Source: Candidatus Iainarchaeum sp.
GTDB taxonomy: Archaea > Iainarchaeota > Iainarchaeia > Iainarchaeales > GCA-2688035
Reading direction: 5' to 3'
Assembly: GCA_028713935.1 (NCBI GenBank)
Contig: JAQTNI010000001.1
Location: 30,001-62,000 of the forward strand
Length of the DNA stretch: 32,000 bases
Below the pieces are notes generated by a model. It had not been told where the DNA came from and did no database searches. It was given only the letters and a program-made list of their open reading frames with translations. The translations under genes were made by a program, and so were the position numbers. Shown here piece after piece: positions 3,939-32,000 of this stretch (position 1 is the first letter of the stretch; each line of letters opens with the position of its first letter).

Positions 3939-4973
3939 TTATTCCATGCTTTGCAAAAGCCCCACTCTTCCCAGTTCCAAAAAATATTCGTTTTCAGGGT
4001 TATTGATTCCTTTTTTGCATTTTGTGTAGGTCGCAAGAATAACATAGATTGCGTGCCCGAGTTTTATGTAAGTTGGCAATGCTTCAAGTTCTTTCTGTGT
4101 TAGCGGAATAATTTTTTGGTATTCTTCCAAAACGATTTCAATGTTTTTTTCAGTTTTGCTTTTGCTTTCCTGCTCAAAAAGCACAGTGCAAGCCATTACC
4201 GCAAGCTCCTGTATTCTTGGATAATAATTTGCACATGCAAAATCAATAAGCCACAATTTTCCGTTTTTATCCTTCATTATGTTTGTTTTTGTCAAATCGC
4301 CATGAACAAAACAATGGGGCAATTTGTTTATTTCAAGTGCTTTTAAATCTTTCACCAATGGAAGAATTTTTTTCAGGTCTTCAGAATCCAGAAATTTTTT
4401 TGCTATTCGGAATTCCTTCAAAAAACTTGTTATTGCCCAATGGTCATAAACAAACTTTGGCTTTATTTTCATGCTGTTTATTATTGCGGCCTGCTTTGCC
4501 AAAAACCTTATTTCCAAATCGGCCAGTTTTTCTTTTGATTCAAACAAAGTTTTGCCTTCAATAAAATCCATTGCAACAAGCCGCAATTTTTTTCCCCTGA
4601 CATTTAAAATCTGCAAATGCCTGTTTTTTGCCTCCAATAATTTTGGAGTGACCACATTGCTTTCCAAGGCCTTTTCCATGATTTTGACATATCTCTTGCA
4701 TTCTTGGAGCGTTCTAAAATCAGCAAAGACTTTGACAAAAAAATTCCCTTTTTTTGTTTGCAGGGCAAAATTAAAATCTTCATAGCCAATTGCAACAAGC
4801 CTGTTTGAAACAAAAGCGCCAAGCCCAAAGCATTTGCAAACAGCTTCAGAAATATCTTCCAATCTGCCTTTGAAGCCAATCCTTTTTTTGAATAAATCCC
4901 CCTCAGCCAAGCCAATCACTTTTTTTATTAGCAATCTGTTTACCAAAGATTCAAGTTCTTTTTCTTTGGGCAA
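3939..4973 (-). CDS. Aminoglycoside/choline-kinase-like (APH family) small-molecule kinase
   Basis: 344-aa ORF. Catalytic loop CFVHGDLTKTNIM followed by LIDFACANY (HxDxxxxN ... D). The TTG start at 4973 lies inside the tRNA-Gly trailer repeat, so the true start is uncertain. Confidence 0.75.
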   Translation of the reverse strand: MPKEKELESLVNRLLIKKVIGLAEGDLFKKRIGFKGRLEDISEAVCKCFGLGAFVSNRLVAIGYEDFNFALQTKKGNFFVKVFADFRTLQECKRYVKIMEKALESNVVTPKLLEAKNRHLQILNVRGKKLRLVAMDFIEGKTLFESKEKLADLEIRFLAKQAAIINSMKIKPKFVYDHWAITSFLKEFRIAKKFLDSEDLKKILPLVKDLKALEINKLPHCFVHGDLTKTNIMKDKNGKLWLIDFACANYYPRIQELAVMACTVLFEQESKSKTEKNIEIVLEEYQKIIPLTQKELEALPTYIKLGHAIYVILATYTKCKKGINNPENEYFLELGRVGLLQSME

Positions 4974-5015
4974 CTTACACTTTCTTTTTCTTTCAAAGAA
5001 AAAGGAAGGGCAGTG
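4953..5015 (-). repeat. Copy A of a ~60-nt direct repeat: tRNA-Gly 3' trailer, ending on the last 2 nt of the tRNA
   Basis: Plus strand aagttctttttctttgggcaacttacactttctttttctttcaaagaaaaaggaagggcagtg aligns with 5082-5140, with only a few indels and mismatches. As RNA it contains a CTTTTTCT/AGAAAAAG hairpin. Confidence 0.8.
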
Positions 5016-5174
5016 CGTCCGCCGGGATTCGAACCCGGGTTACGAGCTCTTTCCTGCTTCAATTTTGTTTATTATTTGTTGAAGTTCTTTCTTTTGGGCA
5101 ACTTACACTTTTCTTTCTTTCAAGAAAGAAAAGGGCAGTGGGAAGCTCGAATCCTACCGCTAGATTACAGACGC
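5014..5174 (-). tRNA. tRNA-Gly(CCC) with a ~90-nt intron at the canonical 37/38 position (exons ~5139-5174 and ~5014-5048)
   Basis: Hand fold. Acceptor GCGTCTG/CGGACGC. D arm ATCT-AGCGGTA-GGAT. Anticodon stem CGAGC/GCTCG with loop TT-CCC-AA. T arm CCGGG-TTCGAAT-CCCGG. Discriminator A. CCA is not encoded. Confidence 0.8.
5082..5140 (-). repeat. Copy B of the ~60-nt direct repeat: first ~57 nt of the tRNA-Gly intron plus the last 2 nt of exon 1
   Basis: Plus strand aagttctttcttttgggcaacttacacttttctttctttcaagaaagaaaagggcagtg. As RNA it contains a CTTTTCTTTC/GAAAGAAAAG hairpin. Confidence 0.8.
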
Positions 5175-6014
5175 GTTTTCTTTTTTTTCTGTTGTGCCTG
5201 TTTCTGTTTGCTGTAATTGTGCTGATGGCGCTATTAAGTATGCCTGTTGGTTTTCTATTTTTATTTGCATTCCTGGCAGGTAGATTTTTACTAGGTTTTT
5301 TTCTGTGGGAGGAAATTTTTCCGCCAGTGCGAGCAATTGCAGTGTTTGTTTTTTTTCTATTACAAGGTTGTTTTGCTCTGTTTTTGCCTGCAGAGATTCT
5401 TTTATTTGGTTTGCAAAGTTTGGGTTTGTGCATTCAATGCGGATTTGTTGCAGTTCTTGTTTTTCAATTATTGCAAAAATTGTGGGAATTGTTTCCTGTG
5501 AAAGAGAAATTTTTTTGAAGTCATTAAAATTCAGTTCTTTTAGTGCTGTTATCTGGTGCAAGAGCACGTCTGAAAGGTATTTTAGTTGTTGTGCCCGTTT
5601 GTCTGTTTTTTCCTTTAGTTCAAGCAAATCGGAAATGTAAAAATTGCTGCTTGTTTTTGCTGCTTTCAGCAAATCGTTGTCTGCTTTGCTTCTTTCAATG
5701 AGGGTTTGCAGCATTTTTACTATTGTTTCAACCTCTTCAACAGGGTTTTTTGATGCCATGCTTTCATTTAGCCTTGTCAATAGCTTGTTTTTCATTTCAG
5801 AATTGATTTCAACAAGGCCCTTGTCTGTTACAAAAATCTTGTTTGCCTGCCTCTGCACAACGCCAATTGCAGCCAAATCTTTCAAAGTCCTACTTAAAGC
5901 AGCGCGAGCAGAATTAATGCTGCCATATTCAGAAGTGATTCTGTTAAGCAGCTCGTTGTAATCAATTCCGGGATTCTGCTTAAGAATTAACAAAAAATTG
6001 TTTCTCTGGGTCAC
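5160..6014 (-). CDS. Winged-helix-like DNA-binding protein with a long C-terminal coiled coil (hypothetical regulator)
   Basis: 284-aa ORF. The N-terminus (GIDYNELLNRITSEYGSINSARAALSRTLKDLAAIGVVQR) looks like a wHTH, and the rest is heptad-rich. The last ~14 nt overlap the tRNA-Gly 5' end. Confidence 0.55.
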   Translation of the reverse strand: MTQRNNFLLILKQNPGIDYNELLNRITSEYGSINSARAALSRTLKDLAAIGVVQRQANKIFVTDKGLVEINSEMKNKLLTRLNESMASKNPVEEVETIVKMLQTLIERSKADNDLLKAAKTSSNFYISDLLELKEKTDKRAQQLKYLSDVLLHQITALKELNFNDFKKISLSQETIPTIFAIIEKQELQQIRIECTNPNFANQIKESLQAKTEQNNLVIEKKQTLQLLALAEKFPPTEKNLVKIYLPGMQIKIENQQAYLIAPSAQLQQTETGTTEKKENASVI

Positions 6015-17571: not shown

Positions 17572-17765
17572 GCAGAGGTGGCAGAACTTGGTAAATGCGC
17601 CGGCCTTGAGAAGCCTTTCTTTCTAAAGAAAGAAAGCCTTGGGAAAGAAACAGTTTGGCTCTGCCAAACTGTAGTTCGCTTCGCTTACATTAGAAAAAAA
17701 GATTATTATTTTTCAGGCGAGCCGGTGTCCGAAAGGGCGCGTGGGTTCAAATCCCATCCTCTGCG
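17572..17765 (+). tRNA. tRNA-Ser(UGA), class II, with a ~109-nt intron (~17611-17719)
   Basis: Hand fold. Acceptor GCAGAGG/CCTCTGC with discriminator G. Anticodon stem CCGGC/GCCGG with loop CT-TGA-G(A). Long variable arm GTCC-GAAA-GGGC. T arm GTGGG-TTCAAAT-CCCAT. Confidence 0.8.
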
Positions 17766-22011: not shown

Positions 22012-22085
22012 TCGCCTTTTAATTTTTCCAAAGCCCCAAGCACCTTTTTATTTAAATATTTGCACAACTTATTATTTCAAGCAAT

Positions 22086-22331
22086 GCGGGGGTGGCAGAG
22101 CGGTCTAATGCGCACGCCTGGAAAGGCCTTTTCTTGCAAGCAAGAAAAGCCCTGGGAAAAGAACAATTTGCTTTGCAAATTGGTTGATTCCCCGGTTCTC
22201 CCCAAAGGATAATTTCAGTTAGAAATTTTTTTCTTTGGGGTGGACTGCAGACCTTTCTTTTTATTAAAAAGAAAGGGATATAGAGAGCGTGTTCTCGAAA
22301 GGGAGCGCGAGTTCAAATCTCGTCCCCCGCG
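22086..22331 (+). tRNA. tRNA-Ser(GGA), class II, with a ~162-nt intron (~22124-22285)
   Basis: Hand fold. Acceptor GCGGGGG/CCCCCGC with discriminator G. Anticodon stem CACGC/GCGTG with loop CT-GGA-AA. Variable arm TTCTCGAAAGGGAGC. T arm GCGAG-TTCAAAT-CTCGT. Confidence 0.8.
22311..22331 (+). repeat. att copy 1: the functional 3' end of tRNA-Ser(GGA), GTTCAAATCTCGTCCCCCGCG
   Basis: Exact 21-mer (22 nt counting the following T), shared with 23668-23688 and 25187-25207. Confidence 0.9.
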
Positions 22332-22421
22332 TTAAACGAAAAGTTCAAATCCAATTGAACGGAAAATTCAAAAAAGAAGCTTTTTTATTTTGCTTGGAGC
22401 ATAATTGTTATTGGTGGTATA

Positions 22422-22643
22422 ATGGATCAAACTTTTAAGGTTGTGATTGAGAACGGCATGGACGGTTATTTAATTGCAGAAGTTCCAGAATTGCCAGGTT
22501 GCTATTCTCAAGGAAAAACCATGGAAGAGCTTTTAGGCAATATTAAAGAGGCAATTGAACTCTATTTGGAATCGCTGCAAGAACTGGATAAAAAACCAGA
22601 AAAACGGTTTGTTGAAATAAAAGAAGTTGTCGTAAATGCCTAA
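22422..22643 (+). CDS. hicB: HicB-family antitoxin, N-terminal (UPF0150) domain only
   Basis: 73-aa ORF. GYLIAEVPELPGCYSQGKTMEELLGNIKEAIELYLE is a typical HicB_N core. No C-terminal DNA-binding domain. Confidence 0.85.
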   Translation: MDQTFKVVIENGMDGYLIAEVPELPGCYSQGKTMEELLGNIKEAIELYLESLQELDKKPEKRFVEIKEVVVNA

Positions 22644-22863
22644 GCTCAAGCTGCTTGCGCCAAAAGAACTAATAAAAATCATTGAAAAACTCGGCTTCAA
22701 GTTTTTACGGCAAAAAGGAAGCCACGCAACCTTTGTCCATCCAGACGGAAGAATGACAGTAATACCAATACACAGCAACTCAAAAATAGATAGAGGATTG
22801 CTCTTGAAAATAATAAAAAAAGAACTGCAAATGGAAAGGCAAGAATTCGAAATATTATTGTAA
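22636..22863 (+). CDS. hicA: HicA-family mRNA interferase toxin
   Basis: 75-aa ORF. KELIKIIEKLGFKFLRQKGSHATFVHPDGRMTVIPIH is a canonical HicA core. Overlaps hicB by 8 nt. Confidence 0.85.
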   Translation: MPKLKLLAPKELIKIIEKLGFKFLRQKGSHATFVHPDGRMTVIPIHSNSKIDRGLLLKIIKKELQMERQEFEILL

Positions 22864-22904
22864 AAAAGGGCTGTGTTATAAATTGTCCGAAATGCAAGAA
22901 GAAA

Positions 22905-23173
22905 ATGGTTGAGGAAAAAGGCGAAACTCCCGAAGGCGCTACATACCATTATCACAAGTGTCCTAACTGCTGCGAGGAAATAGTTGACATGAAACAGTTG
23001 CACGCTGTTGCACAGCAATACAGGGAAATGAAAAAATACACTGCAAAAATCAGCAAATGGGGAGAAGCCTCGGCATAAGAATTCCAAAAGAACTCGCAGA
23101 ACAACACTCCCTGAAACAAAACGGCGAAGTAACCTTGGTTCCGGAAAAAAAAGCAATAAAAATAGTTGCATAA
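22905..23173 (+). pseudogene. Zn-ribbon (YgiT-like) plus AbrB/SpoVT-type domain gene, apparently split by a 1-nt frameshift in a GGGG run near 23059-23062
   Basis: Frame A (22905-23078) reads ...HKCPNCCEE...KISKWGEASA*. Frame C (23057-23173) reads MGRSLGIRIPKELAEQHSLKQNGEVTLVP. Joining them gives KWG-RSLGIRIPKE, the usual AbrB/MazE start. The upstream CPKC (22884-22895) has no canonical start codon. Confidence 0.5.
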
Positions 23174-23238
23174 AACGAAGCCAGAAAGTGCTTGGGCTGA
23201 TTCAAAAGATAAATATAAAAATACGGGAAGTGCAATAT

Positions 23239-23631
23239 ATGGCCATGGCACGAACACTCAAACAAAGAAAAAACCGAAGAAAAACAGGTGGCGTACTTGC
23301 TGTCAGCCCCAATCCACGTGAGGTATATCGTGAAGCTGATGGTTGGAGTGTTTTTCCAGATGTTCGGTACTATGTGCCTGGTAAGCGCATGACTAATTTT
23401 CAAGTGGCTCTCCGATTTTCCAATAAAAAAGGTTCCGATCGTTGGCGCTATAACCAATTTTTGAAACAACATGGTTTTATGGTAACAATGGGCGGTGATA
23501 TTGTAAAGTCGCTTCCCGGCAAGAAATTTAGAATGCTAACAAAAACAGAGAAAGACAAAGTGTTACGCTTGTTAAAGTCGGGCTGGGCAGTATCTTATGG
23601 CCCAAGGCCAAAAAATACACGACAAAAATAA
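23239..23631 (+). CDS. att-proximal small basic protein, family copy 1 (unknown function)
   Basis: 130 aa from ATG 23239 (the track ORF starts at GTG 23188). Roughly half its positions are identical by eye to the ORF at 24773-25150 (KNRRKTGGVL, FPDVRY, RFSNKxGSDRWxYNQFLK, GDIVKxLPGxKFR, SGWAxxYGPxPK). A TATA-like ATAAATATAAAA lies ~25 nt upstream. Confidence 0.65.
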   Translation: MAMARTLKQRKNRRKTGGVLAVSPNPREVYREADGWSVFPDVRYYVPGKRMTNFQVALRFSNKKGSDRWRYNQFLKQHGFMVTMGGDIVKSLPGKKFRMLTKTEKDKVLRLLKSGWAVSYGPRPKNTRQK

Positions 23632-23667
23632 CCTGATGCTTGTCACGCGCATCATTAACGGCATAGT

Positions 23668-23688
23668 GTTCAAATCTCGTCCCCCGCG
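23668..23688 (+). repeat. att copy 2 (junction between E1 and E2)
   Basis: Exact GTTCAAATCTCGTCCCCCGCG. The preceding bases differ from the tRNA T-stem (TAGTG against GCGAG). Confidence 0.9.
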
Positions 23689-23742
23689 TGTTTTTATTTC
23701 ATAAACAATATGTTTTTAAATTGAAAACAGAATGTTTTTATT

Positions 23743-24285
23743 ATGCTTGCGAGTGAATTGTTTTCTTCAAAGGAGAGAATTGGGCTTATCAAGATTCTTT
23801 TTTATACGCCCAATTTGGAATTAAAAGTTAGGTCTCTTGCTCGGTTTGCAAAAGTAAGCCCTGCTCTTGTTTCCGGCACGATTGCGATTCTTAAGAAACA
23901 AGGAGCTATAAACAAAGGCAAAATTGATTTGTTGCATCCTTCTGCAAGGGCCTTGAAAATACTATTGAATATTGAAAGCCTCACCTCTGCCAAATTTGTT
24001 CCTGAAATAAGAAGCATTTTCAAGGATTGCAATGGCATTGGTTTGTATGGTAGTTGGGCAAACGGAACCAATTCAAAAGACAGTGATTTGGATTTTTGGG
24101 TAAAATCAGAATCTGAAAGCGAGGAAAAGTCGGCTAAAATAAGTCGTTTTGTTAAGCAGAAGCTTGGCTTGGAAGCCAGCATAATTATTCTTACACAAAA
24201 AAGGCTGAAAGAATTGAAAGAAAAGGATTTTGTTTTTTATTCAATGCTGTACAATTGTTTTTTGTTGTGGGGCGAAGGAATATGA
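23743..24285 (+). CDS. Nucleotidyltransferase (MNT-type antitoxin-like) with an N-terminal winged-helix domain
   Basis: 180-aa ORF. NTase motif GLYGSWANGTNSKDSDLDFWV (GSx..SDxD). The stop overlaps the next start in ATGA (24282-24285). Confidence 0.8.
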   Translation: MLASELFSSKERIGLIKILFYTPNLELKVRSLARFAKVSPALVSGTIAILKKQGAINKGKIDLLHPSARALKILLNIESLTSAKFVPEIRSIFKDCNGIGLYGSWANGTNSKDSDLDFWVKSESESEEKSAKISRFVKQKLGLEASIIILTQKRLKELKEKDFVFYSMLYNCFLLWGEGI

Positions 24286-24698
24286 TTGATTTTAATGAGT
24301 GCCTTGCAAAAGGCCTTTTGGCAAGAATTCCCGCTTCAAGGGAAAAAGCTTTGCAGAGTATTGAGAAAGCAAAAGAACTATTGGAAGAAGCAAAAGCAAG
24401 CCTTGAAGAGGAAAGAATCAATTCCACAGTAATAGTTGCCTATCTTGCAATTTTTCATGCTGCAAGGGCACTGCTTTTCAAAGATGGTTACAGGGAAAAA
24501 AGCCACGAATGCGTAATCCGCTATCTGGAAGAAAAATATCCTGAAATAAAACCAGGGCAGATTGAAGCCTTGGAAAAATACAAAAGTGAAAGAACCCACA
24601 CACAATACGATGTGAGTTATAATCCAAGCGAAGAACAAGCAGAAAAAATGATAAAATTCACGGAAAAATTCATCCAAACAATAGAAGAAATGATTTAA
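24282..24698 (+). CDS. HEPN-domain protein (toxin-like partner of the nucleotidyltransferase)
   Basis: 138 aa from ATG 24282. AYLAIFHAARALLFKDGYREKSHECVIRYLEE is a typical HEPN helix pair. Translationally coupled to the NTase gene. Confidence 0.75.
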   Translation: MIDFNECLAKGLLARIPASREKALQSIEKAKELLEEAKASLEEERINSTVIVAYLAIFHAARALLFKDGYREKSHECVIRYLEEKYPEIKPGQIEALEKYKSERTHTQYDVSYNPSEEQAEKMIKFTEKFIQTIEEMI

Positions 24699-24772
24699 GC
24701 TGGTTCGCTTCTATGCCTTGTTTTTTGGAAAATTATAAATATGGGCATGTGCTTAATACTATTGGTAGTTTA

Positions 24773-25150
24773 ATGCGCGGTGTAAACAAAAATAGGAGAA
24801 AAACTGGTGGCGTACTCCGTGTTGGGAAACGACCACTTGAAGTTGGGATTTCGTTGGAAGATAGCGGTTTTCATGTTTTTCCCGATGTTCGATACCGCAG
24901 TGACCGAATGAGTAGATTTAAAACTTCTCGCAGGTTTTCTAACAAAATAGGTTCAGATCGCTGGCACTATAACCAGTTTTTAAAACCTCGCGGCTTTTGG
25001 ATTACCCAAGCGGGCGATATTGTAAAACCCCTTCCGGGCAATAAATTTAGGTTTTTAAAGCTATCCGAATTTCGGAAAGTTAGGGATTTGTTATGGTCGG
25101 GTTGGGCAAAGAGATACGGCCCAAAACCAAAAACAACTAAGCGAAAATAG
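24773..25150 (+). CDS. att-proximal small basic protein, family copy 2 (unknown function)
   Basis: 125 aa from ATG 24773. Paralog of 23239-23631. Followed by an equally long (36 nt) homologous spacer and the att copy. Confidence 0.65.
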   Translation: MRGVNKNRRKTGGVLRVGKRPLEVGISLEDSGFHVFPDVRYRSDRMSRFKTSRRFSNKIGSDRWHYNQFLKPRGFWITQAGDIVKPLPGNKFRFLKLSEFRKVRDLLWSGWAKRYGPKPKTTKRK

Positions 25151-25186
25151 CATCATTCTTGCCACGCGCATCTTTAACAGTAAGGT

Positions 25187-25207
25187 GTTCAAATCTCGTC
25201 CCCCGCG
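25187..25207 (+). repeat. att copy 3 (distal junction, probably the displaced original tRNA 3' end)
   Basis: Exact GTTCAAATCTCGTCCCCCGCG. Confidence 0.9.
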
Positions 25208-25330
25208 TAATTTCAATTAATAGTCCAGAGTGTTGGCATATTAGTTGTAAGATAAAATCTTGGTTTGCTCATATTTGCCCTGTGTGCTTTTGCGAGAGCA
25301 AAATATTGGATTAGAGGCCGCAGAGGCTGT

Positions 25331-25594
25331 TTATTGGTGATGTTTTTGCGTTCTTGCTTTTCTAATTCTTTTTGGAGCCCACCTGTAACTTACAGATTTT
25401 CTGTTGTGATGATTTTTTTTGCTTAATAACTTTAAGAACAGGGTTCCAATTCTTCGGGCATTTTCCTGCGGATTTGAAGAACAATCAACAATATACAACG
25501 GTTTCTTATGTTGTATTGCAAGAGCCTTTGCTTCAAGTGCGCAGGCATAACATTCACGTTCGATATCTTTGATACTTACAGAATGCCGTGTTTT
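25331..25594 (-). other. 87-codon open continuation in the same frame directly after the TAA stop of the P-loop kinase gene
   Basis: After ...LEMRRR-TAA the frame reads KTRHSVSIKDIERECYACALEAKALAIQHKKPLYIVDCSSNPQENARRIGTLFLKLL... up to TAA at 25331-25333. It has no ATG or GTG, and its only TTG is late. Confidence 0.5.
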
Positions 25595-26008
25595 TTATCT
25601 TCTGCGCATTTCCAGCCTGTTTTGCCTTCTTTCTTGGATTACCAGCGGGTTTCCTTTTATTAAAACAATTCCGTCAAAATACTTTGCGCATTCAGGAATC
25701 AACTGTGTAAAAATACTGGCATCATGCCTGATCCTGTTGATAACAAAGTGCCCATCAACTACAATAAGTTTTTCGGGATATTTTCTGGCTAGGTCCCTGA
25801 TTTCAAGTGCAGCTTCTTCAATAAACTTCTGCATCTCGCGATTCGTTTGTTCTCCAAATTTTTTTCCGGAAAAACTTTTTCTAAACTTTTTTTTTAAAAA
25901 TTCTGCGCCACGAATATAATAGAACAGCGGCCCTAGTTTTTCACTTGCAAGCTTAATTGCAGTTGTTTTTCCCAGAGTATGTGGCCCCCCGACATAAATT
26001 AAAACCAT
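25595..26008 (-). CDS. P-loop NTPase, adenylate/nucleoside-kinase-like (possibly truncated)
   Basis: 137-aa ORF. Walker A is VGGPHTLGKTT and Walker-B-like is LIVVDGH. Confidence 0.7.
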   Translation of the reverse strand: MVLIYVGGPHTLGKTTAIKLASEKLGPLFYYIRGAEFLKKKFRKSFSGKKFGEQTNREMQKFIEEAALEIRDLARKYPEKLIVVDGHFVINRIRHDASIFTQLIPECAKYFDGIVLIKGNPLVIQERRQNRLEMRRR

Positions 26009-26107
26009 ACTTAACTTACCCCTCTTTTGTATATATTTTTTTGGTTATAAGAAAAAAATGAATAAGCTTTTTATTTCCAAGTGCCCATTATTTACAAGGT
26101 AATTTGT

Positions 26108-26800
26108 ATGGCAAAAAGCAAAAAAGAATTTTCTGGAAAAAAGGATTGCGGAATTGTTGTTTCAAAGGATGGGCCTTATCTTGTTTCTGGCGGCTTGCCT
26201 CTGGTAAGGGAAATTGCTGTGCCTGACAGTGAAGGCCATCCTGTAAAATGGGTGAAAGGCAAGGTTTTTCCTGCCAAGGGAGATTATGCTCTTTGCCGTT
26301 GTGGACAGACTGAAAAAAAGCCGTTTTGTGATGGAACACACACTAAAATAGGCTTTGATGGCACTGAAACAGCAAGCAGGAAAGAATTCCTGAAACAAGC
26401 GGAAAAAATCAGTGGGTCAGGCCTTGTTTTGTTTGATGCGCCAGAACTGTGCGCAGGAGCAGGGTTTTGCCATAGCAAGGAAGGGGATACATGGAACCTT
26501 ACAAAAGAGTCTGATAATTTCAAATCAAAAAAAATTGCAATCCAGCAGGCATGCGATTGCCCTGCGGGAAGGCTGGTGGCTTGTGAAAAAAAAACAGGCA
26601 AGCCAATTGAACCTGATTTTAAGCCAGGAATCAGCATTACAAAATGGCAAGGCGAAAAATTTCCCGGTCCCTTTTGGATAAAAGGCGGAGTGCCAATAGA
26701 ATCGCATGATGGAAAAAAATATGAAACAAGGAATCGCGTTACTTTGTGCCATTGCGGCAAATCAAGAAACAAGCCGTTTTGTGATGGCAGCCATATGTAA
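26108..26800 (+). CDS. CDGSH iron-sulfur domain protein (two CDGSH motifs flanking a Cys-rich middle domain)
   Basis: Start taken at MAKSKKEF (26108). Has CRCGQTEKKPFCDGTH and CHCGKSRNKPFCDGSH. The middle domain has CAGAGFCHS...CDCPAGRL. Confidence 0.85.
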   Translation: MAKSKKEFSGKKDCGIVVSKDGPYLVSGGLPLVREIAVPDSEGHPVKWVKGKVFPAKGDYALCRCGQTEKKPFCDGTHTKIGFDGTETASRKEFLKQAEKISGSGLVLFDAPELCAGAGFCHSKEGDTWNLTKESDNFKSKKIAIQQACDCPAGRLVACEKKTGKPIEPDFKPGISITKWQGEKFPGPFWIKGGVPIESHDGKKYETRNRVTLCHCGKSRNKPFCDGSHM

Positions 26801-26846
26801 GCAAATATTTTTCCAAGTTTTTTTGTTGGAAAGGTTATAAACTACT

Positions 26847-27350
26847 TTGTTAAATGCTTTTTTTATGCAGGAAGAATTCAGGCTTGTTTCAAATACGGAA
26901 TTGGCAGGCCCTTTAAGGCATTTTGTTGAAGCTATTTTTGCCAAACATATTTCTAATCCGGGTTCTTTGAAGGTTTTTATTTCAAACGGCGGCCAAATGA
27001 AAGGGATTGCAAGGGGCAATGTTTTGATTGGATTTTGCGCCTTTATGCCGCTTGGCAATGATTCTGTTTTAATAAGCCAAATCTGGACAAATACGAAGTC
27101 AGTGGCTGCAAGAGAATTCAAAAGAGATTTTGGCAGGACTCCAACAGAATATCTTTTTGGAGATTTTTTGAGGAAAGGAATTTCCCATTTTCATCATCTA
27201 GGGGTAACAGCTTTAGGTGCAAGATTTTTGGCAAGGCTTGAGAAAAACGCCCTGGTTGCTAAAAAACAAAGCGGGTTTGAAATAACAAATAGGGCAATTG
27301 AAAAAGCAAAAAAAACAAGGCAATTAAGGCCTCTCAGGGTTATTCATTGA
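26847..27350 (+). CDS. Hypothetical protein
   Basis: 167-aa ORF (ATG 26865 is an alternative start). No family recognised. Confidence 0.4.
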   Translation: MLNAFFMQEEFRLVSNTELAGPLRHFVEAIFAKHISNPGSLKVFISNGGQMKGIARGNVLIGFCAFMPLGNDSVLISQIWTNTKSVAAREFKRDFGRTPTEYLFGDFLRKGISHFHHLGVTALGARFLARLEKNALVAKKQSGFEITNRAIEKAKKTRQLRPLRVIH

Positions 27351-27355
27351 ATTTT

Positions 27356-27583
27356 TTATTCGTCCTGTTTTTGCTTGGGTTTGACTGGTGTTTTTACCTG
27401 GCCTCTGGCCTGGTTGCTTTCTGAAAGGTCCTGGATTCTTCTAGCCAAAGCGGAATATTTTTTTTGTTTCAGCATTAATTGCATTTCCAACAGCCTTAAT
27501 TGCCAGTAGTCCTGGGGTTTTGCGCAGTCCAGTTCGTCCAGCACTTCGGATAACTTTCGTTTCACCATAAAAATTGCCTCCAA
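27356..27583 (-). CDS. Small hypothetical coiled-coil protein
   Basis: 75-aa ORF, convergent with the previous gene. No family recognised. Confidence 0.35.
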   Translation of the reverse strand: MEAIFMVKRKLSEVLDELDCAKPQDYWQLRLLEMQLMLKQKKYSALARRIQDLSESNQARGQVKTPVKPKQKQDE

Positions 27584-27837
27584 AAAAATCAGTCAAATTT
27601 TTGAATAAAAAGCCAATAAAAAATCAATTCCAAATTGTTATATAATCAGTGTATGGTTAGTATTAAAATGCAATAATAAGGCAGCAATAAACGCTTTTTT
27701 TGGCTCAGTTCCCTTTATAACCTGTTTTTGGCACTTATTATGTATATCAGATTCTGTTTCTCTAATCTGTTAGTGCTTTGGCACCATAGTAAATTTTTTG
27801 AGAATTAAAAAATTCAATTGATTGTGGAGGGATAAAA

Positions 27838-28332
27838 ATGACTTTAGAACCTATTTGGACAAAAGACCTGGATATTGTTTTTGTTGGAATAAACCCGAGG
27901 TCAGAATCAGTGGAAAATGGAATGTATTTTCACGAGAACAATTCTTTTTGGTCGCAATTAAACGAATCTGAAATTACTTCGGAAATTACTGATTCAAAAA
28001 ACATGCTGAAATACAATATTGGAATTGATAACCTGGTTCACAGGCCTACGAAAAGCAGCAAAGAGCTTTCAAAAAAAGAATATTATGATGGCAGGAAAGA
28101 ACTGGAACAAAAAATTCTGGAGCAAAAGCCAAAGACTGTCTGCTTTTTGGGAAAAAAGGCATTCAGGAAATATTTTAAGGAAAAGCCTGAAAACCATGGC
28201 TGGCAAAAAGAAAAAATTTTGGAATCAAAAGTTTTCATAGCGTATGTTCCGAAAAAAAACAAGTATGATTCAAAAATGAACATTACTGAAAAAGACAAGA
28301 TAAACAAGTTAAAAGAATTAAAATCACAATAA
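27838..28332 (+). CDS. Mug/TDG-type (family 2) uracil/mismatch DNA glycosylase
   Basis: 164-aa ORF. LDIVFVGINP...NGMYFHENNSFWSQL parallels the Mug pattern GINPG...F.....N.FW. Preceded by the strong SD-like GGAGGG 7 nt upstream. Confidence 0.7.
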   Translation: MTLEPIWTKDLDIVFVGINPRSESVENGMYFHENNSFWSQLNESEITSEITDSKNMLKYNIGIDNLVHRPTKSSKELSKKEYYDGRKELEQKILEQKPKTVCFLGKKAFRKYFKEKPENHGWQKEKILESKVFIAYVPKKNKYDSKMNITEKDKINKLKELKSQ

Positions 28333-28460
28333 GCAATTCACTGCAAATGCTTTGTGCAGGGCAGGCAAGCTTTGCACAAACAATGAATTGCAGAGCAATT
28401 AATTCAAATAAGCTTTTTATTCCTAAGCGCACTGATTAGTTAAATAGGGGCTGTTTTTCA

Positions 28461-29615
28461 ATGGGCAAAACTTTTGGCATCAGCATAGGGCTTGGCATTG
28501 TAAAGCCAAATTTTGAAAAGCCGTTTGAAGAGAATTTTGAGAAGGCTTTTTCTGCTTTCAAGGAATACAAAAAGGCAAAAATTTCTGAAAGGAAAGCGTT
28601 TTTTGGAGTGCTTTCAAGGAAGGACTGGGAAAGCCTTGTAGGAATAAAGCTGATTGAAAATTCTTCCATAGAAGGAAAAAAATTTCTTGAAGGGGAATAC
28701 AAAAAAATTCTTTTTTTTGATGAAGAAAGGCTTTTTCTTGAAACAGTTGAACTGAACAGGGAAATGGAAAACAATCTTTTTCTTCTGAAGAAAAAAAGAA
28801 GTTTTGCAAAAAGCATTGCAAAGGGAATTTTCAGGGTAAAAAATGCTTTTTCTGGCTTTGAAAGGCTTTTCAAGAAAAAAATTCTTTTGGAAATGGGTTT
28901 TTTCAGGCTGCTGCCTTTTTGTTATTCCCTGATTGAAGAACTGCCTGAATCAAAAAAACAATTTGTGAAATACAATGAAAGCGATGCAATTGAGTTTGTT
29001 TCAAAGCCGGGCCAGAGCCTTAATAAAATTGAAAAAGAATTATTGCGGAACATTCTGCTTGCAGAAAAAATTCTTGCAAAAAAAGGCCTGAAACTTTTTT
29101 TTGGCAGTGTTTATCCAAAAACAAAAAGAATGGGCTTGCTGAAAAAGATTGGAATTGGCGAGGACCAGAATTTTTTGGAATTGCATTTGCACATGGGAAA
29201 TTTTGATTCCGCTGCTGAAATGGCAGAACTGTACAACAAAATAATTGGCTTTTTTGAAGCAAATCCCCTGTTAATTGAAGAGGAGCGCAGGCTTTTTTAT
29301 GGCCTTAAAAACCCAAGAAGGTTAAGCCTGAAAGGCATTGAAGAGCAAATTCGGGCAAGGTTTGGAAAAAACAGCAGGCTTGAAAAACCAGGCAGGCCTG
29401 ATATTGATGCAATTATTTCGGCTTTGAACAATAGAAAACAGAAATTTTTGGCGAGAGATTATGCGACTGTTTTTATCAGGCCTGAGCTTGGCACAATTGA
29501 AATCAGGGCTTTTGGAACAAAAGGAAACGGAACAAAAAGCATAAGGAAAAACCTTCATGAAAACATTGTTTTTTTTGAACAGTTCATGAAAAAACTTGAA
29601 TTGGCTTCAGCGTGA
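28461..29615 (+). CDS. Hypothetical protein, possibly a very divergent carboxylate-amine ligase (GCS2/amidoligase-like)
   Basis: 384-aa ORF. The only recognisable cue is the C-terminal VFIRPELGTIEIRAFG, which resembles the R-P...G-T-x-E-x-R strand of glutamate-cysteine-ligase-2-type enzymes. Confidence 0.4.
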   Translation: MGKTFGISIGLGIVKPNFEKPFEENFEKAFSAFKEYKKAKISERKAFFGVLSRKDWESLVGIKLIENSSIEGKKFLEGEYKKILFFDEERLFLETVELNREMENNLFLLKKKRSFAKSIAKGIFRVKNAFSGFERLFKKKILLEMGFFRLLPFCYSLIEELPESKKQFVKYNESDAIEFVSKPGQSLNKIEKELLRNILLAEKILAKKGLKLFFGSVYPKTKRMGLLKKIGIGEDQNFLELHLHMGNFDSAAEMAELYNKIIGFFEANPLLIEEERRLFYGLKNPRRLSLKGIEEQIRARFGKNSRLEKPGRPDIDAIISALNNRKQKFLARDYATVFIRPELGTIEIRAFGTKGNGTKSIRKNLHENIVFFEQFMKKLELASA

Positions 29616-30500
29616 CTTTGGAATTTTGTGGCCTCCAAATTTGTTTCTTATGGCTGCTATAAACTTGTTTGAAAAAGTGTTTTCCTGCCTTGACCTTAGG
29701 CGGGATTCAAAAGCTGCTGTTATTGAAGAAAACGGGATTTCTTTTTTCCAGGCTTCTTCAATTGCCCATTTGCCTGTTTCCCCGCCTTCAACAATTCCCG
29801 GAAGATTATCAAAATTTTCTTCTTTAAGCGCTTTTTCCGCGAGTTCAAGGATATATGACCTGATTATGGCCCCGTTGTTCCAGGTGCCGGCAATTTCACA
29901 AAGATTAAAGCCAAATTCAGATTTTGACAATAATTCAAATCCCTCTGCATAGCTTTGAAGAATTCCGTATTCAATTGCATTGTGCGCCATTTTTATAAAA
30001 TGCCCTGAACCATTTCCGCCTGCAAACAATAATCCGTTTTTGCTTGCCAAAGCCTCAAAAACAGGCTTGAACTTTTCAAAGGCCTTTTTTTCCCCGCCAA
30101 CAGTGAAACAAAGCCCGTTTTCAGCGCCCCGCAGGCCCCCGCTTGTTCCTGCATCAAGAAAAAAAATGCCTTTTTCTCCAAGGCTTTTGGCTCTTCTGAT
30201 GGAATCAAGGTAATGGGAATTGCCTGCATCTGCAATAATGTCGCCTTTTTTCAAATAGGGAAGAATTTCCAAAATTGCTTTTTCCACTGCTTCCCCCGCT
30301 GGAACCAAAAGGACAATTTTTCTTTCCGGCTTTAAATACTCCACAAACTCCTTAATGCTTGAAGCGATATTAATTTTTTTTCCAAGCTCTTTTCTTAAAT
30401 CCGGATTTTTATCAAACCCAATGGCATCAATTTTTTTTGAAGCCAGATTTGCCAATGCCCTCTGGCCAATTTTTCCCAGGCCAATGATTCCAACCTGCAT
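29607..30500 (-). CDS. gnd: 6-phosphogluconate dehydrogenase, short (~300 aa) decarboxylating form
   Basis: 297-aa ORF. N-terminal MQVGIIGLGKIG Rossmann motif. The 6PGDH signature is GNGSGHFIKMAHNAIEYG. Confidence 0.85.
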   Translation of the reverse strand: MQVGIIGLGKIGQRALANLASKKIDAIGFDKNPDLRKELGKKINIASSIKEFVEYLKPERKIVLLVPAGEAVEKAILEILPYLKKGDIIADAGNSHYLDSIRRAKSLGEKGIFFLDAGTSGGLRGAENGLCFTVGGEKKAFEKFKPVFEALASKNGLLFAGGNGSGHFIKMAHNAIEYGILQSYAEGFELLSKSEFGFNLCEIAGTWNNGAIIRSYILELAEKALKEENFDNLPGIVEGGETGKWAIEEAWKKEIPFSSITAAFESRLRSRQENTFSNKFIAAIRNKFGGHKIPKSR

Positions 30501-30503
30501 GAA

Positions 30504-31406
30504 TTATTGCCTCCCTAGTTTTTCGTCAGCAAAAACAAAAGCCCCAAGCAGCCCAATTTTGCTGCCAAGCTTTGACGGAACAATTTTTGGCACCTTGCCG
30601 ATTGTATACTTTTTTATTTCGCGTGGCTTTGGAATAATTTTGTCAAACTGGTTCAAAGCAATTGAGCCCATCAAAACAATTGCATCAACAGAAAAAGCAT
30701 TAAGCATATTGCCAATGCCCTGCGCATTGTAATCCCTTATTTGCCAAACAATTTTTTTTATTTTTTTGTCTGACTCGCTCAGCCTGAAAAAGTCTTCAAC
30801 TGTTATCCTTGTTTTTAATTCTTTTTCAATTATGGATTCTATTCCAAAACCAGAGGACATTGCGGCCCAGCAGCCAAGCCTGTTGCAGCTGCATTTTTTG
30901 GCCTTTTTCAAATCCCGCTCCAAGGTTGTGTGGCCGAATTCGCCAAAAAAACAGTCCATTGCCTTGCCGTTCATGACAAGCCCGGAACCAATTCCAGTGC
31001 TAATTGCCAGAAGAAAAAATTTTTTCACTGTTTTTCCCAGGCCAAAATTCAGTTCGGCTTTTGCGGCAGCTTTCAGGTCGTTTGCAATAAAAACAGGCTC
31101 TTTAAAGTGCCTGCCTAATTCTCTGGCAACATTGAATTTGGAATTAATTTTCATTGGTGCAGATTCCAGCAAAAACCCGTTTTCAACAGGGCCTGGCAAG
31201 CCAAGTGAAACTCCCGCAATTTTGAATTCAGAAGAAACGCTTTCCCTAAGCGCCTTTGACAAATCCCTGATTTGCATTATTAGCGCTTTTGGGCTTCCCT
31301 TGATAGTTTTACACTCAATTGCCCTGGTTATTTTTCCGTTTTTTTGCATTAACGCGCCAAGAATTTTTGTTCCGCCAACATCATAGCATTCTATCAGGCC
31401 AGGCAT
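30504..31406 (-). CDS. ROK-family sugar kinase (glucokinase-like)
   Basis: Start taken at MPGLIECYDVGGTK (31406). The ROK zinc motif is CSCNRLGCWAAMSSG. Confidence 0.8.
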   Translation of the reverse strand: MPGLIECYDVGGTKILGALMQKNGKITRAIECKTIKGSPKALIMQIRDLSKALRESVSSEFKIAGVSLGLPGPVENGFLLESAPMKINSKFNVARELGRHFKEPVFIANDLKAAAKAELNFGLGKTVKKFFLLAISTGIGSGLVMNGKAMDCFFGEFGHTTLERDLKKAKKCSCNRLGCWAAMSSGFGIESIIEKELKTRITVEDFFRLSESDKKIKKIVWQIRDYNAQGIGNMLNAFSVDAIVLMGSIALNQFDKIIPKPREIKKYTIGKVPKIVPSKLGSKIGLLGAFVFADEKLGRQ

Positions 31407-31463
31407 AATTATGTATTGTTTGCAATAACAAATAAATAACTGTCTGTGCATAAATGCAGGTTA

Positions 31464-32000
31464 ATGAAAATAATTGCAGATAAAAATATGGAAAAATTGA
31501 ATAAGCTTGCAGCCAAGATTTTGGCGAGAAGCATAAAACAGATATTGAAAAAAAAGGAGTATCTTATTCTGGGCCTTGCAGGCGGCAGGAGCCTTTTTGG
31601 CTTTTTAAAAGTTCTAAGCCGGGAAACAGAAATCCCCTGGAAAAAAATCCATTTCTTTCTGGCTGACGAAAGAATAGTGCCTGTTTCAAGCAAAGAAAGC
31701 AATTTCAGGATGATCAAGGGCGCCCTGTTTGACAGGCTTGCCAGTAAAAAATTATTGCCAAAAAAGAATATCCACAAATTTGCCATGAATAAAAAACCAT
31801 GTTTTGGGCTTTTTGATTATGAAAAAGAGCTGAAAAAATACGGGAATTTTTATGATATCCTGGTTTTAAGTTCCGGAGAAGACGGGCACATAGCCTCTTT
31901 GTTTCCAAAACATGATTCAATAAAAAACAATTCAGAATGTTATCTGATAGTAAAAAATTCGCCCAAACCGCCTGAAAAAAGAATGAGTGTTTCGAGAAAA
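31464..32000 (+). CDS. pgl: 6-phosphogluconolactonase (partial, runs off the right edge)
   Basis: My own translation from ATG 31464: MKIIADKNMEKLNKLAAKILARSIKQILKKKEYLILGLAGGRS...IHFFLADERIVP...ILVLSSGEDGHIASLFP, the Pgl/DevB hallmarks. Absent from the ORF track because there is no stop within the window. Confidence 0.85.
   Translation, partial: MKIIADKNMEKLNKLAAKILARSIKQILKKKEYLILGLAGGRSLFGFLKVLSRETEIPWKKIHFFLADERIVPVSSKESNFRMIKGALFDRLASKKLLPKKNIHKFAMNKKPCFGLFDYEKELKKYGNFYDILVLSSGEDGHIASLFPKHDSIKNNSECYLIVKNSPKPPEKRMSVSRK

Follow-up and report, generated by a model that had tools for sequence, protein, structure and literature searches.

A conserved orphan gene and 36-nt spacer adjoin the att repeats of two tandem toxin-antitoxin elements at an archaeal tRNA-Ser gene

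The locus considered here lies in a window of 32,000 nt from a metagenome-assembled genome (MAG) of Candidatus Iainarchaeum sp. (GenBank assembly GCA_028713935.1, contig JAQTNI010000001.1, positions 30,001 to 62,000 of the forward strand); all coordinates below count from the first letter of this window. Two short insertions, termed E1 and E2, lie in tandem behind the 3' end of a tRNA-Ser(GGA) gene, each bounded by exact 22-nt repeats of that tRNA end, referred to as att. They are alike only in their right-hand parts, which consist of a gene for a small basic orphan protein (P1 in E1 and P2 in E2, jointly P) with its promoter box, a 36-nt spacer and the att copy itself. The features concerned are as follows.

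22311-22332, + strand: att copy 1, the last 22 nt of tRNA-Ser(GGA)
22333-23689, + strand: element E1, 1357 bp with the distal att copy counted in, between exact 22-nt repeats
23239-23631, + strand: P1, a 130-aa orphan basic protein with a pI of 11.2 (GenBank MDD5162641.1)
23632-23667, + strand: E1 spacer, 36 nt between the P1 stop codon and att copy 2
23668-23689, + strand: att copy 2, an exact 22-nt repeat at the distal end of E1
23690-25208, + strand: element E2, 1519 bp with the distal att copy counted in, between exact 22-nt repeats
24773-25150, + strand: P2, a 125-aa orphan basic protein with a pI of 11.6 (GenBank MDD5162644.1)
25151-25186, + strand: E2 spacer, 36 nt between the P2 stop codon and att copy 3
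25187-25208, + strand: att copy 3, an exact 22-nt repeat at the distal end of E2, followed by the chromosomal flank

The 22-nt sequence GTTCAAATCTCGTCCCCCGCGT is present in exactly three copies on the + strand of the window, starting at 22311, 23668 and 25187, where none would be expected in shuffled sequence. Copy 1 is the genuine 3' end of the tRNA, from the T-loop to the discriminator, because ARAGORN, when introns are allowed, finds a tRNA-Ser(GGA) gene ending there (22085-22332, + strand, its anticodon loop interrupted by a 162-nt intron); copies 2 and 3 are displaced partial copies. This gene is seen neither by ARAGORN with default settings nor by Rfam at the gathering threshold. The window has three tRNA genes, all with long introns (5014-5174 on the - strand, 17572-17765 and 22085-22332 on the + strand); the total lengths of these genes are 161, 194 and 248 nt, and default ARAGORN detects none of the three. 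Two independent Logan assemblies match positions 22711-24345 and 24516-32000 at 100% identity, hence the junction joining P1, att copy 2 and E2 is not an artefact of assembly. The single-run Logan contigs end at 22711, 24345 and 24516, which are positions inside the HicA and HEPN genes of the two elements and not at the att copies; coverage or strain variants may account for this. No anomaly in base composition is seen across the locus.

P1 and P2 share 60% of their amino acids (BLASTP E = 7e-45). The alignment contains no cysteine and no invariant histidine, while a serine, an aspartate, an arginine and two tyrosines are invariant (S66-D67-R68, Y71 and Y120), and its best conserved block is GSDRWxYNQFLK. 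Lysine and arginine together account for 31-33 residues, concentrated in both tails. The GenBank record of P2 begins at an upstream ATG (24713, giving 145 aa) as opposed to the one at 24773 used here. Each gene is preceded by a TATA-like octamer, ATAAATAT, on the + strand, at 23209-23216 for P1 and at 24735-24742 for P2, ending 22 and 30 nt before the respective ATG; this octamer occurs four times in the 32 kb against an expectation of 0.96. In sequence and placement these boxes fit archaeal TATA boxes serving leaderless or short-leader mRNAs.

The coding sequences of P1 and P2 are 64% identical at the nucleotide level, with identities of 73, 68 and 51% at the first, second and third codon positions. 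The Nei-Gojobori (NG86) estimates are 0.35 for dN, 1.40 for dS and 0.25 for dN/dS; these values indicate that P is a real gene under purifying selection, and that its two copies are old. Both reading frames stop exactly 36 nt before att, and the spacers that follow are identical at 27 of 36 positions without a gap. Their shared core, CACGCGCATC, is found at 23644-23653 in E1 and at 25163-25172 in E2, and in E1 it falls within a conserved block, CTTGYCACGCGCATCWTTAAC, at 23639-23659. On the + strand of the window the heptamer CACGCGC is found only in these two spacers. The probability of at least 27 matches in 36 is 0.003 if each position matched at the third-position rate (p = 0.51), and 2.5e-4 at p = 0.45. 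Synonymous sites show no trend in identity along the P gene, which speaks against an additional DNA-level constraint within its 3' coding end, and therefore the constraint on the DNA begins after the stop codon. Overall, identity between E1 and E2 falls from 100% in att through 75% in the spacer to 64% in the P gene, and nothing else in the two elements is alike, the left ends included.

These results agree closely with the original prediction, which had been made from the letters of the sequence and a list of reading frames. It had described the two proteins as clear homologues, and the blocks of residues it named are indeed invariant; it had reported the common 36-nt distance to att, the ungapped 27/36 likeness of the spacers around a shared core and a TATA box in front of both genes, all of which were recovered. 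Its statement that selection acts on the gene as well as on the non-coding link to att is borne out by the dN/dS of 0.25 and by the excess of spacer identity (75%) over third-position identity (51%, p = 0.003), and its statement that the remainder of each element is unrelated also stands. The alternative it had raised, of a merely recent duplication, is contradicted by a dS of 1.40 and by spacers that are more alike than synonymous sites. P, the spacer and att can therefore be regarded as a core conserved in two elements that diverged independently.

Other explanations of the spacer found no favour. It does not represent a degenerate tRNA body, as a hand count gives only 6/36 identities with the tRNA at the same offset, and Rfam places nothing in this region. 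RNA of spacer plus att folds no better than shuffled sequences (z-scores of -0.4 to +1.1). Short motifs common to the spacer and the left ends, namely AACGG/AACAG and AATTGAA, were considered as arm sites, and by estimate lie within chance expectation.

The remainder of the two elements is composed of the following genes.

22422-22643, + strand: HicB, E1 cargo (Pfam HicB_lk_antitox, E = 7e-11)
22636-22863, + strand: HicA, E1 cargo (Pfam HicA_toxin, E = 2e-18)
22905-23078, + strand: open reading frame (ORF) with a Zn-ribbon, E1, overlapping the MazE/AbrB-like ORF
23057-23173, + strand: MazE/AbrB-like ORF of 38 aa, E1 (Pfam MazE_antitoxin, E = 1.3e-8)
23743-24285, + strand: helix-turn-helix (HTH)-nucleotidyltransferase (MNT), E2 cargo (Pfam NTP_transf_2, E = 2.5e-8)
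24282-24698, + strand: HEPN, E2 cargo (Pfam HEPN, E = 1.9e-19)

The Zn-ribbon and MazE/AbrB-like ORFs are probably a single gene that a 1-nt frameshift divides at a run of G (23059-23062), as reading across the split gives KISKWG followed, in the shifted frame, by RSLGIRIPKEL; this could represent a pseudogene, a sequencing error or a programmed shift. The HicBA cassette of E1 and its promoter, AAAAAAGAAGCTTTTTTATTTTGCTTG, also occur in contigs from other DPANN archaea, with HicA or HicBA identities of 72-85% at the amino acid level. These copies occupy unrelated chromosomal sites, between radical-SAM and PspC genes (locus L013), between uvrB and uvrA (L023) and at a third site (L024), and none of the three has an adjoining P-like ORF or an adjoining tRNA gene. 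At L013 the cassette is flanked by direct repeats of 31 nt that are 81% identical (4695-4725 and 5286-5316 in the numbering of L013), and at L024 by exact direct repeats of 15 nt (4696-4710 and 5248-5262 in the numbering of L024); at L023 there is no clear repeat. The arrangement of these copies suggests that HicBA pairs of this kind move as small repeat-flanked cassettes. Hence P is not needed for that cargo at other chromosomal sites, and the lack of any relationship between the cargoes of E1 and E2 likewise implies that the toxin-antitoxin genes are exchangeable, while P, spacer and att form the conserved core.

The genes on either side of the two elements are housekeeping genes, with GMP synthase upstream and, downstream, an AAA_17 kinase-like gene followed by genes for a CDGSH iron-sulfur protein, UDG, 6PGD and ROK proteins. 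The CDGSH gene (26081-26800) contains an internal direct repeat of 46 nt (26289-26334 and 26742-26787, 74% identical), which reflects its two CDGSH domains.

Tandem units in the same orientation and with the same 36-nt spacing could also have arisen from a single old insertion that unequal crossing-over between att copies duplicated locally, after which the two units diverged and received different toxin-antitoxin cassettes; that such cassettes insert by themselves in related genomes is in keeping with this. The two att copies outside the tRNA are, however, identical at 22 of 22 positions, in the face of a 25% divergence of the spacers and nearly saturated synonymous sites. Drift at the rate of the spacer would leave att unchanged with a probability of 0.75^22 = 0.002 at most, and the left ends of the units have nothing in common. 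Duplication in place is accordingly improbable. As att is kept perfect because it must match the tRNA, its preservation beside a diverged spacer argues that the elements diverged elsewhere, each retaining a tRNA-matching site, and not by drift after a local duplication.

Relatives of P were sought by indexed and exhaustive HMMER searches of a collection of about 15 billion proteins, and also in four profile libraries, among PDB sequences and by Foldseek comparison of two structure models. No family in Pfam, PHROGs, NCBIfam or PADLOC accommodates P. A word-indexed search of 5.8 billion protein clusters, whether with a single sequence or with a profile at E <= 10, returned only P1 and P2. No relative came to light when GTDB genomes, IMG/VR and JGI metagenomes were scanned with protein patterns, or by tblastn against GenBank phages and PLSDB plasmids. 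At the DNA level, the pattern CACGCGCATC-N16-GTTCAAATC had no match in genomes, eight in metagenomes and one among viruses, which are attributed to chance, as none continues into a tRNA end; the 21-mer of att, as well as a 17-mer, is absent from IMG/VR. In the databases searched, the P family thus comprises two members, both in this MAG. The original prediction could place P in no family that it knew, and the same outcome is obtained with profile libraries, HMMER, PDB sequences and structure models with Foldseek.

One resemblance, weak and covering P residues ~30-96, was to NHL repeats. The exhaustive HMMER search of 1.84 billion representatives returned, besides P itself, a single 1208-aa NHL-repeat protein (E = 1.8e-4, in five weak stretches), and although nothing among PDB sequences fell below E = 0.1, the best of them were the NHL domains of TRIM71 (E = 0.11). 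The core of P could on these grounds derive from NHL-type beta-propeller repeats or be what remains of them, equivalent to about 1.5 blades and engaged in oligomeric protein or RNA binding. The score, however, adds up weak matches to single repeats, which have probably inflated it; a comparison with the repeat unit by hhalign reaches a probability of 20%, P has no significant internal repeat, and AlphaFold places helices where NHL has strands. A propeller ancestry for P is thus very doubtful.

The AlphaFold model of full-length P is poor, with a pLDDT of 51; it leaves the first 57 residues and the C-terminal tail without structure, and nothing meaningful is matched by Foldseek. In this model disordered basic tails make up about half of the protein, and the ordered domain measures ~60 aa. 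When residues 55-125 are modelled alone, the result (pLDDT 76, pTM 0.60) has an alpha-beta-beta-beta-alpha(-alpha) topology, in which the block GSDRWxYNQFLK is predicted to form a helix rich in Arg, Trp, Asn, Gln, Tyr and Lys. This topology prompted a comparison with the fold of HicA and of double-stranded RNA-binding domains, which was discarded, since hhalign against a 40-member HicA alignment (PF07927) gives a probability of 0.2% and there is no Pfam match.

The original prediction had named a mini-recombinase among the ways in which P might serve integration or excision. Tyrosine recombinases (Phage_integrase, XerA and the SSV, pNOB8 and SNJ2 types) have a C-terminal catalytic domain of at least ~170 aa with R-K-H-R-H/W-Y residues, for which P is too short; it yields no Pfam or NCBIfam match to them at E <= 1-10, and has neither an invariant histidine nor an RKHRH/WY pattern. 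For serine recombinases (resolvases/invertases and TnpA of IS607), in which the N-terminal catalytic domain has a nucleophilic serine, there is no Pfam match and no YxRVSxxxQ motif in P, and the N-terminal block KNRRKTGGVL contains no conserved serine. HUH/Y1 transposases (TnpA of IS200/IS605) are not matched either, as there is no invariant histidine in P and no hairpin-grade fold in spacer or att, and no DDE-type pattern is found in the protein. No site-specific recombinase is known to be as small as 125-130 aa. None of the 29 larger ORFs in the window encodes a recombinase domain.

A new minimal recombinase or nuclease that cuts and rejoins at the tRNA T-loop, by virtue of which E1 and E2 would be autonomous at a size of ~1.4 kb, would account for several observations: P is the only conserved gene, adjoins att and reads towards it across a conserved, arm-like spacer, it possesses invariant Ser, Asp, Arg and Tyr residues, and no integrase is found in the 32 kb. 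Set against this are the size of P, its want of an invariant His or of any Cys, the absence of serine, tyrosine, HUH or DDE patterns and of Pfam matches, the modelling of half the chain as disordered tails, an ordered domain of ~60 aa with no relative among nucleic-acid enzymes, and the existence elsewhere of homologous HicBA cassettes, some between direct repeats, that do without P. Such an enzyme is therefore highly improbable. Much the same is to be said of the idea that P is a self-sufficient recombinase of ~15 kDa, or the founder of a new class of nuclease-ligases, that recognises the arm and the tRNA-Ser T-loop, which has only a very small chance of being correct. What survives of the predicted integration or excision function is the conserved association of P, spacer and att, with no placement of P in a recombinase family or among recombination directionality factors (RDFs).

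Two further classes of element could be set aside. A fragment of an SSV-type integrase, int(N), does not agree with a stop codon 36 nt before att that is followed by a second in-frame stop, with a conserved C-terminus, or with the absence of int(C) from the left ends. An integron attC cassette is not indicated by the fold z-scores of spacer plus att given above, by a repeat that is a tRNA 3' end or by the lack of an integrase in the window. The comparison with RDFs is mixed. These are small and highly basic proteins (PMC2603039), as is P with its 125-130 aa and pI of 11.2-11.6; a winged-helix or HTH fold, or similarity to Xis or Cox, is not seen in P, for which there is no Pfam or PHROG match and no Xis among the Foldseek results.

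P might also be conserved for reasons outside recombination, as a selfish or cargo gene of toxin-like, anti-defence or regulatory RNA- or DNA-binding character, in which case the spacer would be the attP arm for an integrase acting in trans, or the 3' untranslated region or terminator of the P mRNA. Both elements otherwise consist of toxin-antitoxin modules, P1 comes after a MazE/AbrB-type antitoxin-like gene, an oligo-T run follows immediately 3' of att copy 2, and no family placement constrains the function of P. Conversely, P2 has no adjoining antitoxin-like partner and each P gene has a promoter box of its own, no toxin match is returned by PADLOC or Pfam and the hhalign probability for HicA is negligible, and shuffled RNA folds as well as that of the spacer and att. 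Furthermore, to be the sole gene common to elements whose cargo has been fully exchanged is usually the mark of a life-cycle gene and not of cargo. A role for P outside recombination is hence considered somewhat unlikely.

The interpretation we favour, with a probability of roughly 0.4, is that E1 and E2 are miniature integrative elements which have no integrase and are mobilised in trans, and that P is an accessory factor which binds nucleic acid at the att arm, in the manner of RDFs or of the Xer-activating factor XafT. The role in recombination is hypothesised solely from the position of the gene. E1 and E2 would belong to a single lineage of mini-elements, as distant relatives within it, and would have entered the 3' end of tRNA-Ser(GGA) successively in a host of the 'Candidatus Iainarchaeum' type, a DPANN archaeon, with the stretch from T-loop to discriminator as the target. 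The constant part would be the right-hand att module, made up of the promoter, the P gene, the 36-nt arm and the 22-nt core that rebuilds the tRNA end, and the toxin-antitoxin genes would be exchangeable cargo that keeps the insertions stable. The enzyme for strand exchange in the tRNA T-arm would come from elsewhere and act in trans, as a tyrosine-type integrase supplied by a helper element or an Xer-type recombinase of the host; P would act at the arm beside the core, where its part may be architectural, may lie in setting directionality, or may be to activate the borrowed recombinase. The basic tails and the conserved helix rich in Arg, Trp, Tyr, Asn and Gln would suit a protein that binds such an arm.

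A second potential recombination site lies at the left end of E1.

22343-22360, no strand assigned: perfect palindrome GTTCAA-ATCCAA-TTGAAC, at the left end of E1, 10 nt 3' of the tRNA end

Its first 9 nt are the start of att (GTTCAAATC), and this palindrome may be a candidate second core-type recombinase site.

Several points weigh against this interpretation. The positional association of P with att is observed twice, in a single genome, and no helper integrase is seen within the window. Foldseek links the domain model of P to no Xis or winged-helix protein, the best matches having E values of 0.37 in the PDB and 0.26 in BFVD, and by estimate a repeated binding motif for P in the arm lacks statistical support. 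The binding of P to DNA and its effect on recombination, a target in the spacer and the dependence on a helper are inferred. Characterised archaeal integrases, moreover, function without RDFs (PMC8371274).

The importance of the locus would be high only if P were catalytic or able to redirect a recombinase. Were P truly self-sufficient, no autonomous site-specific integrative element known would be smaller than E1 and E2, with their core of ~0.5 kb. If instead P enables an insertion of 1.4 kb to use a borrowed recombinase, it would rank among the first archaeal accessory recombination factors described, Orf2 and Orf3 of SNJ2 already being known to modulate an archaeal integrase (PMC8371274). 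In that event it would also afford a rare view of mobile DNA in DPANN archaea, and would define a very small programmable integration module consisting of an arm and a tRNA end. If P proves to be only cargo, the locus would still be a clean case of toxin-antitoxin mini-elements in tandem accretion at an intron-bearing tRNA gene.

Among known systems, the overall arrangement is closest to that of cis-mobilisable elements (CIMEs) and tandem accretions at bacterial tRNA genes (PMC5704250), with which E1 and E2 have in common att repeats at the tRNA 3' end on both flanks, stacking in tandem, and the absence of an integrase or other integration genes of their own within the 32-kb window. CIMEs differ in being decayed integrative and conjugative or integrative and mobilisable elements (ICEs or IMEs) that have no conserved gene of their own, whereas E1 and E2 keep an intact, selected gene and an arm beside att, are only 1.36-1.52 kb in length, and are archaeal (DPANN).

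For P itself, the RDFs (Xis, Cox, Apl, RdfS) provide a parallel in being small, highly basic (PMC2603039) and encoded by the element near att, with binding to an arm to be expected; P has no similarity to them in sequence or fold, and its element encodes no partner integrase. The satellite phage TLC-phi, an Xer-exploiting integrative mobile element (IMEX) that relies on the XerCD recombinase of its host, resembles E1 and E2 in having no integrase and in forming tandem arrays at its target (PMC6744903). Its integration needs a 1-kbp region flanking attP as well as its own Xer-activating factor, XafT (PMC6744903). XafT, however, carries a DUF3653 domain and targets dif, whereas P has no match to DUF3653, the target of E1 and E2 is a tRNA T-arm that is unlike the 11-6-11 structure of dif, and the host is an archaeon. 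The 'suicidal' integrases of the SSV type, finally, are likewise encoded by an ORF at the end of an element in an archaeal genome, reading towards an att derived from a tRNA, but there att lies inside the int ORF (PMC8371274), whereas P stops 36 nt before it. The locus is best filed as a tRNA-integrated, trans-mobilised type of element with an orphan att-proximal gene.

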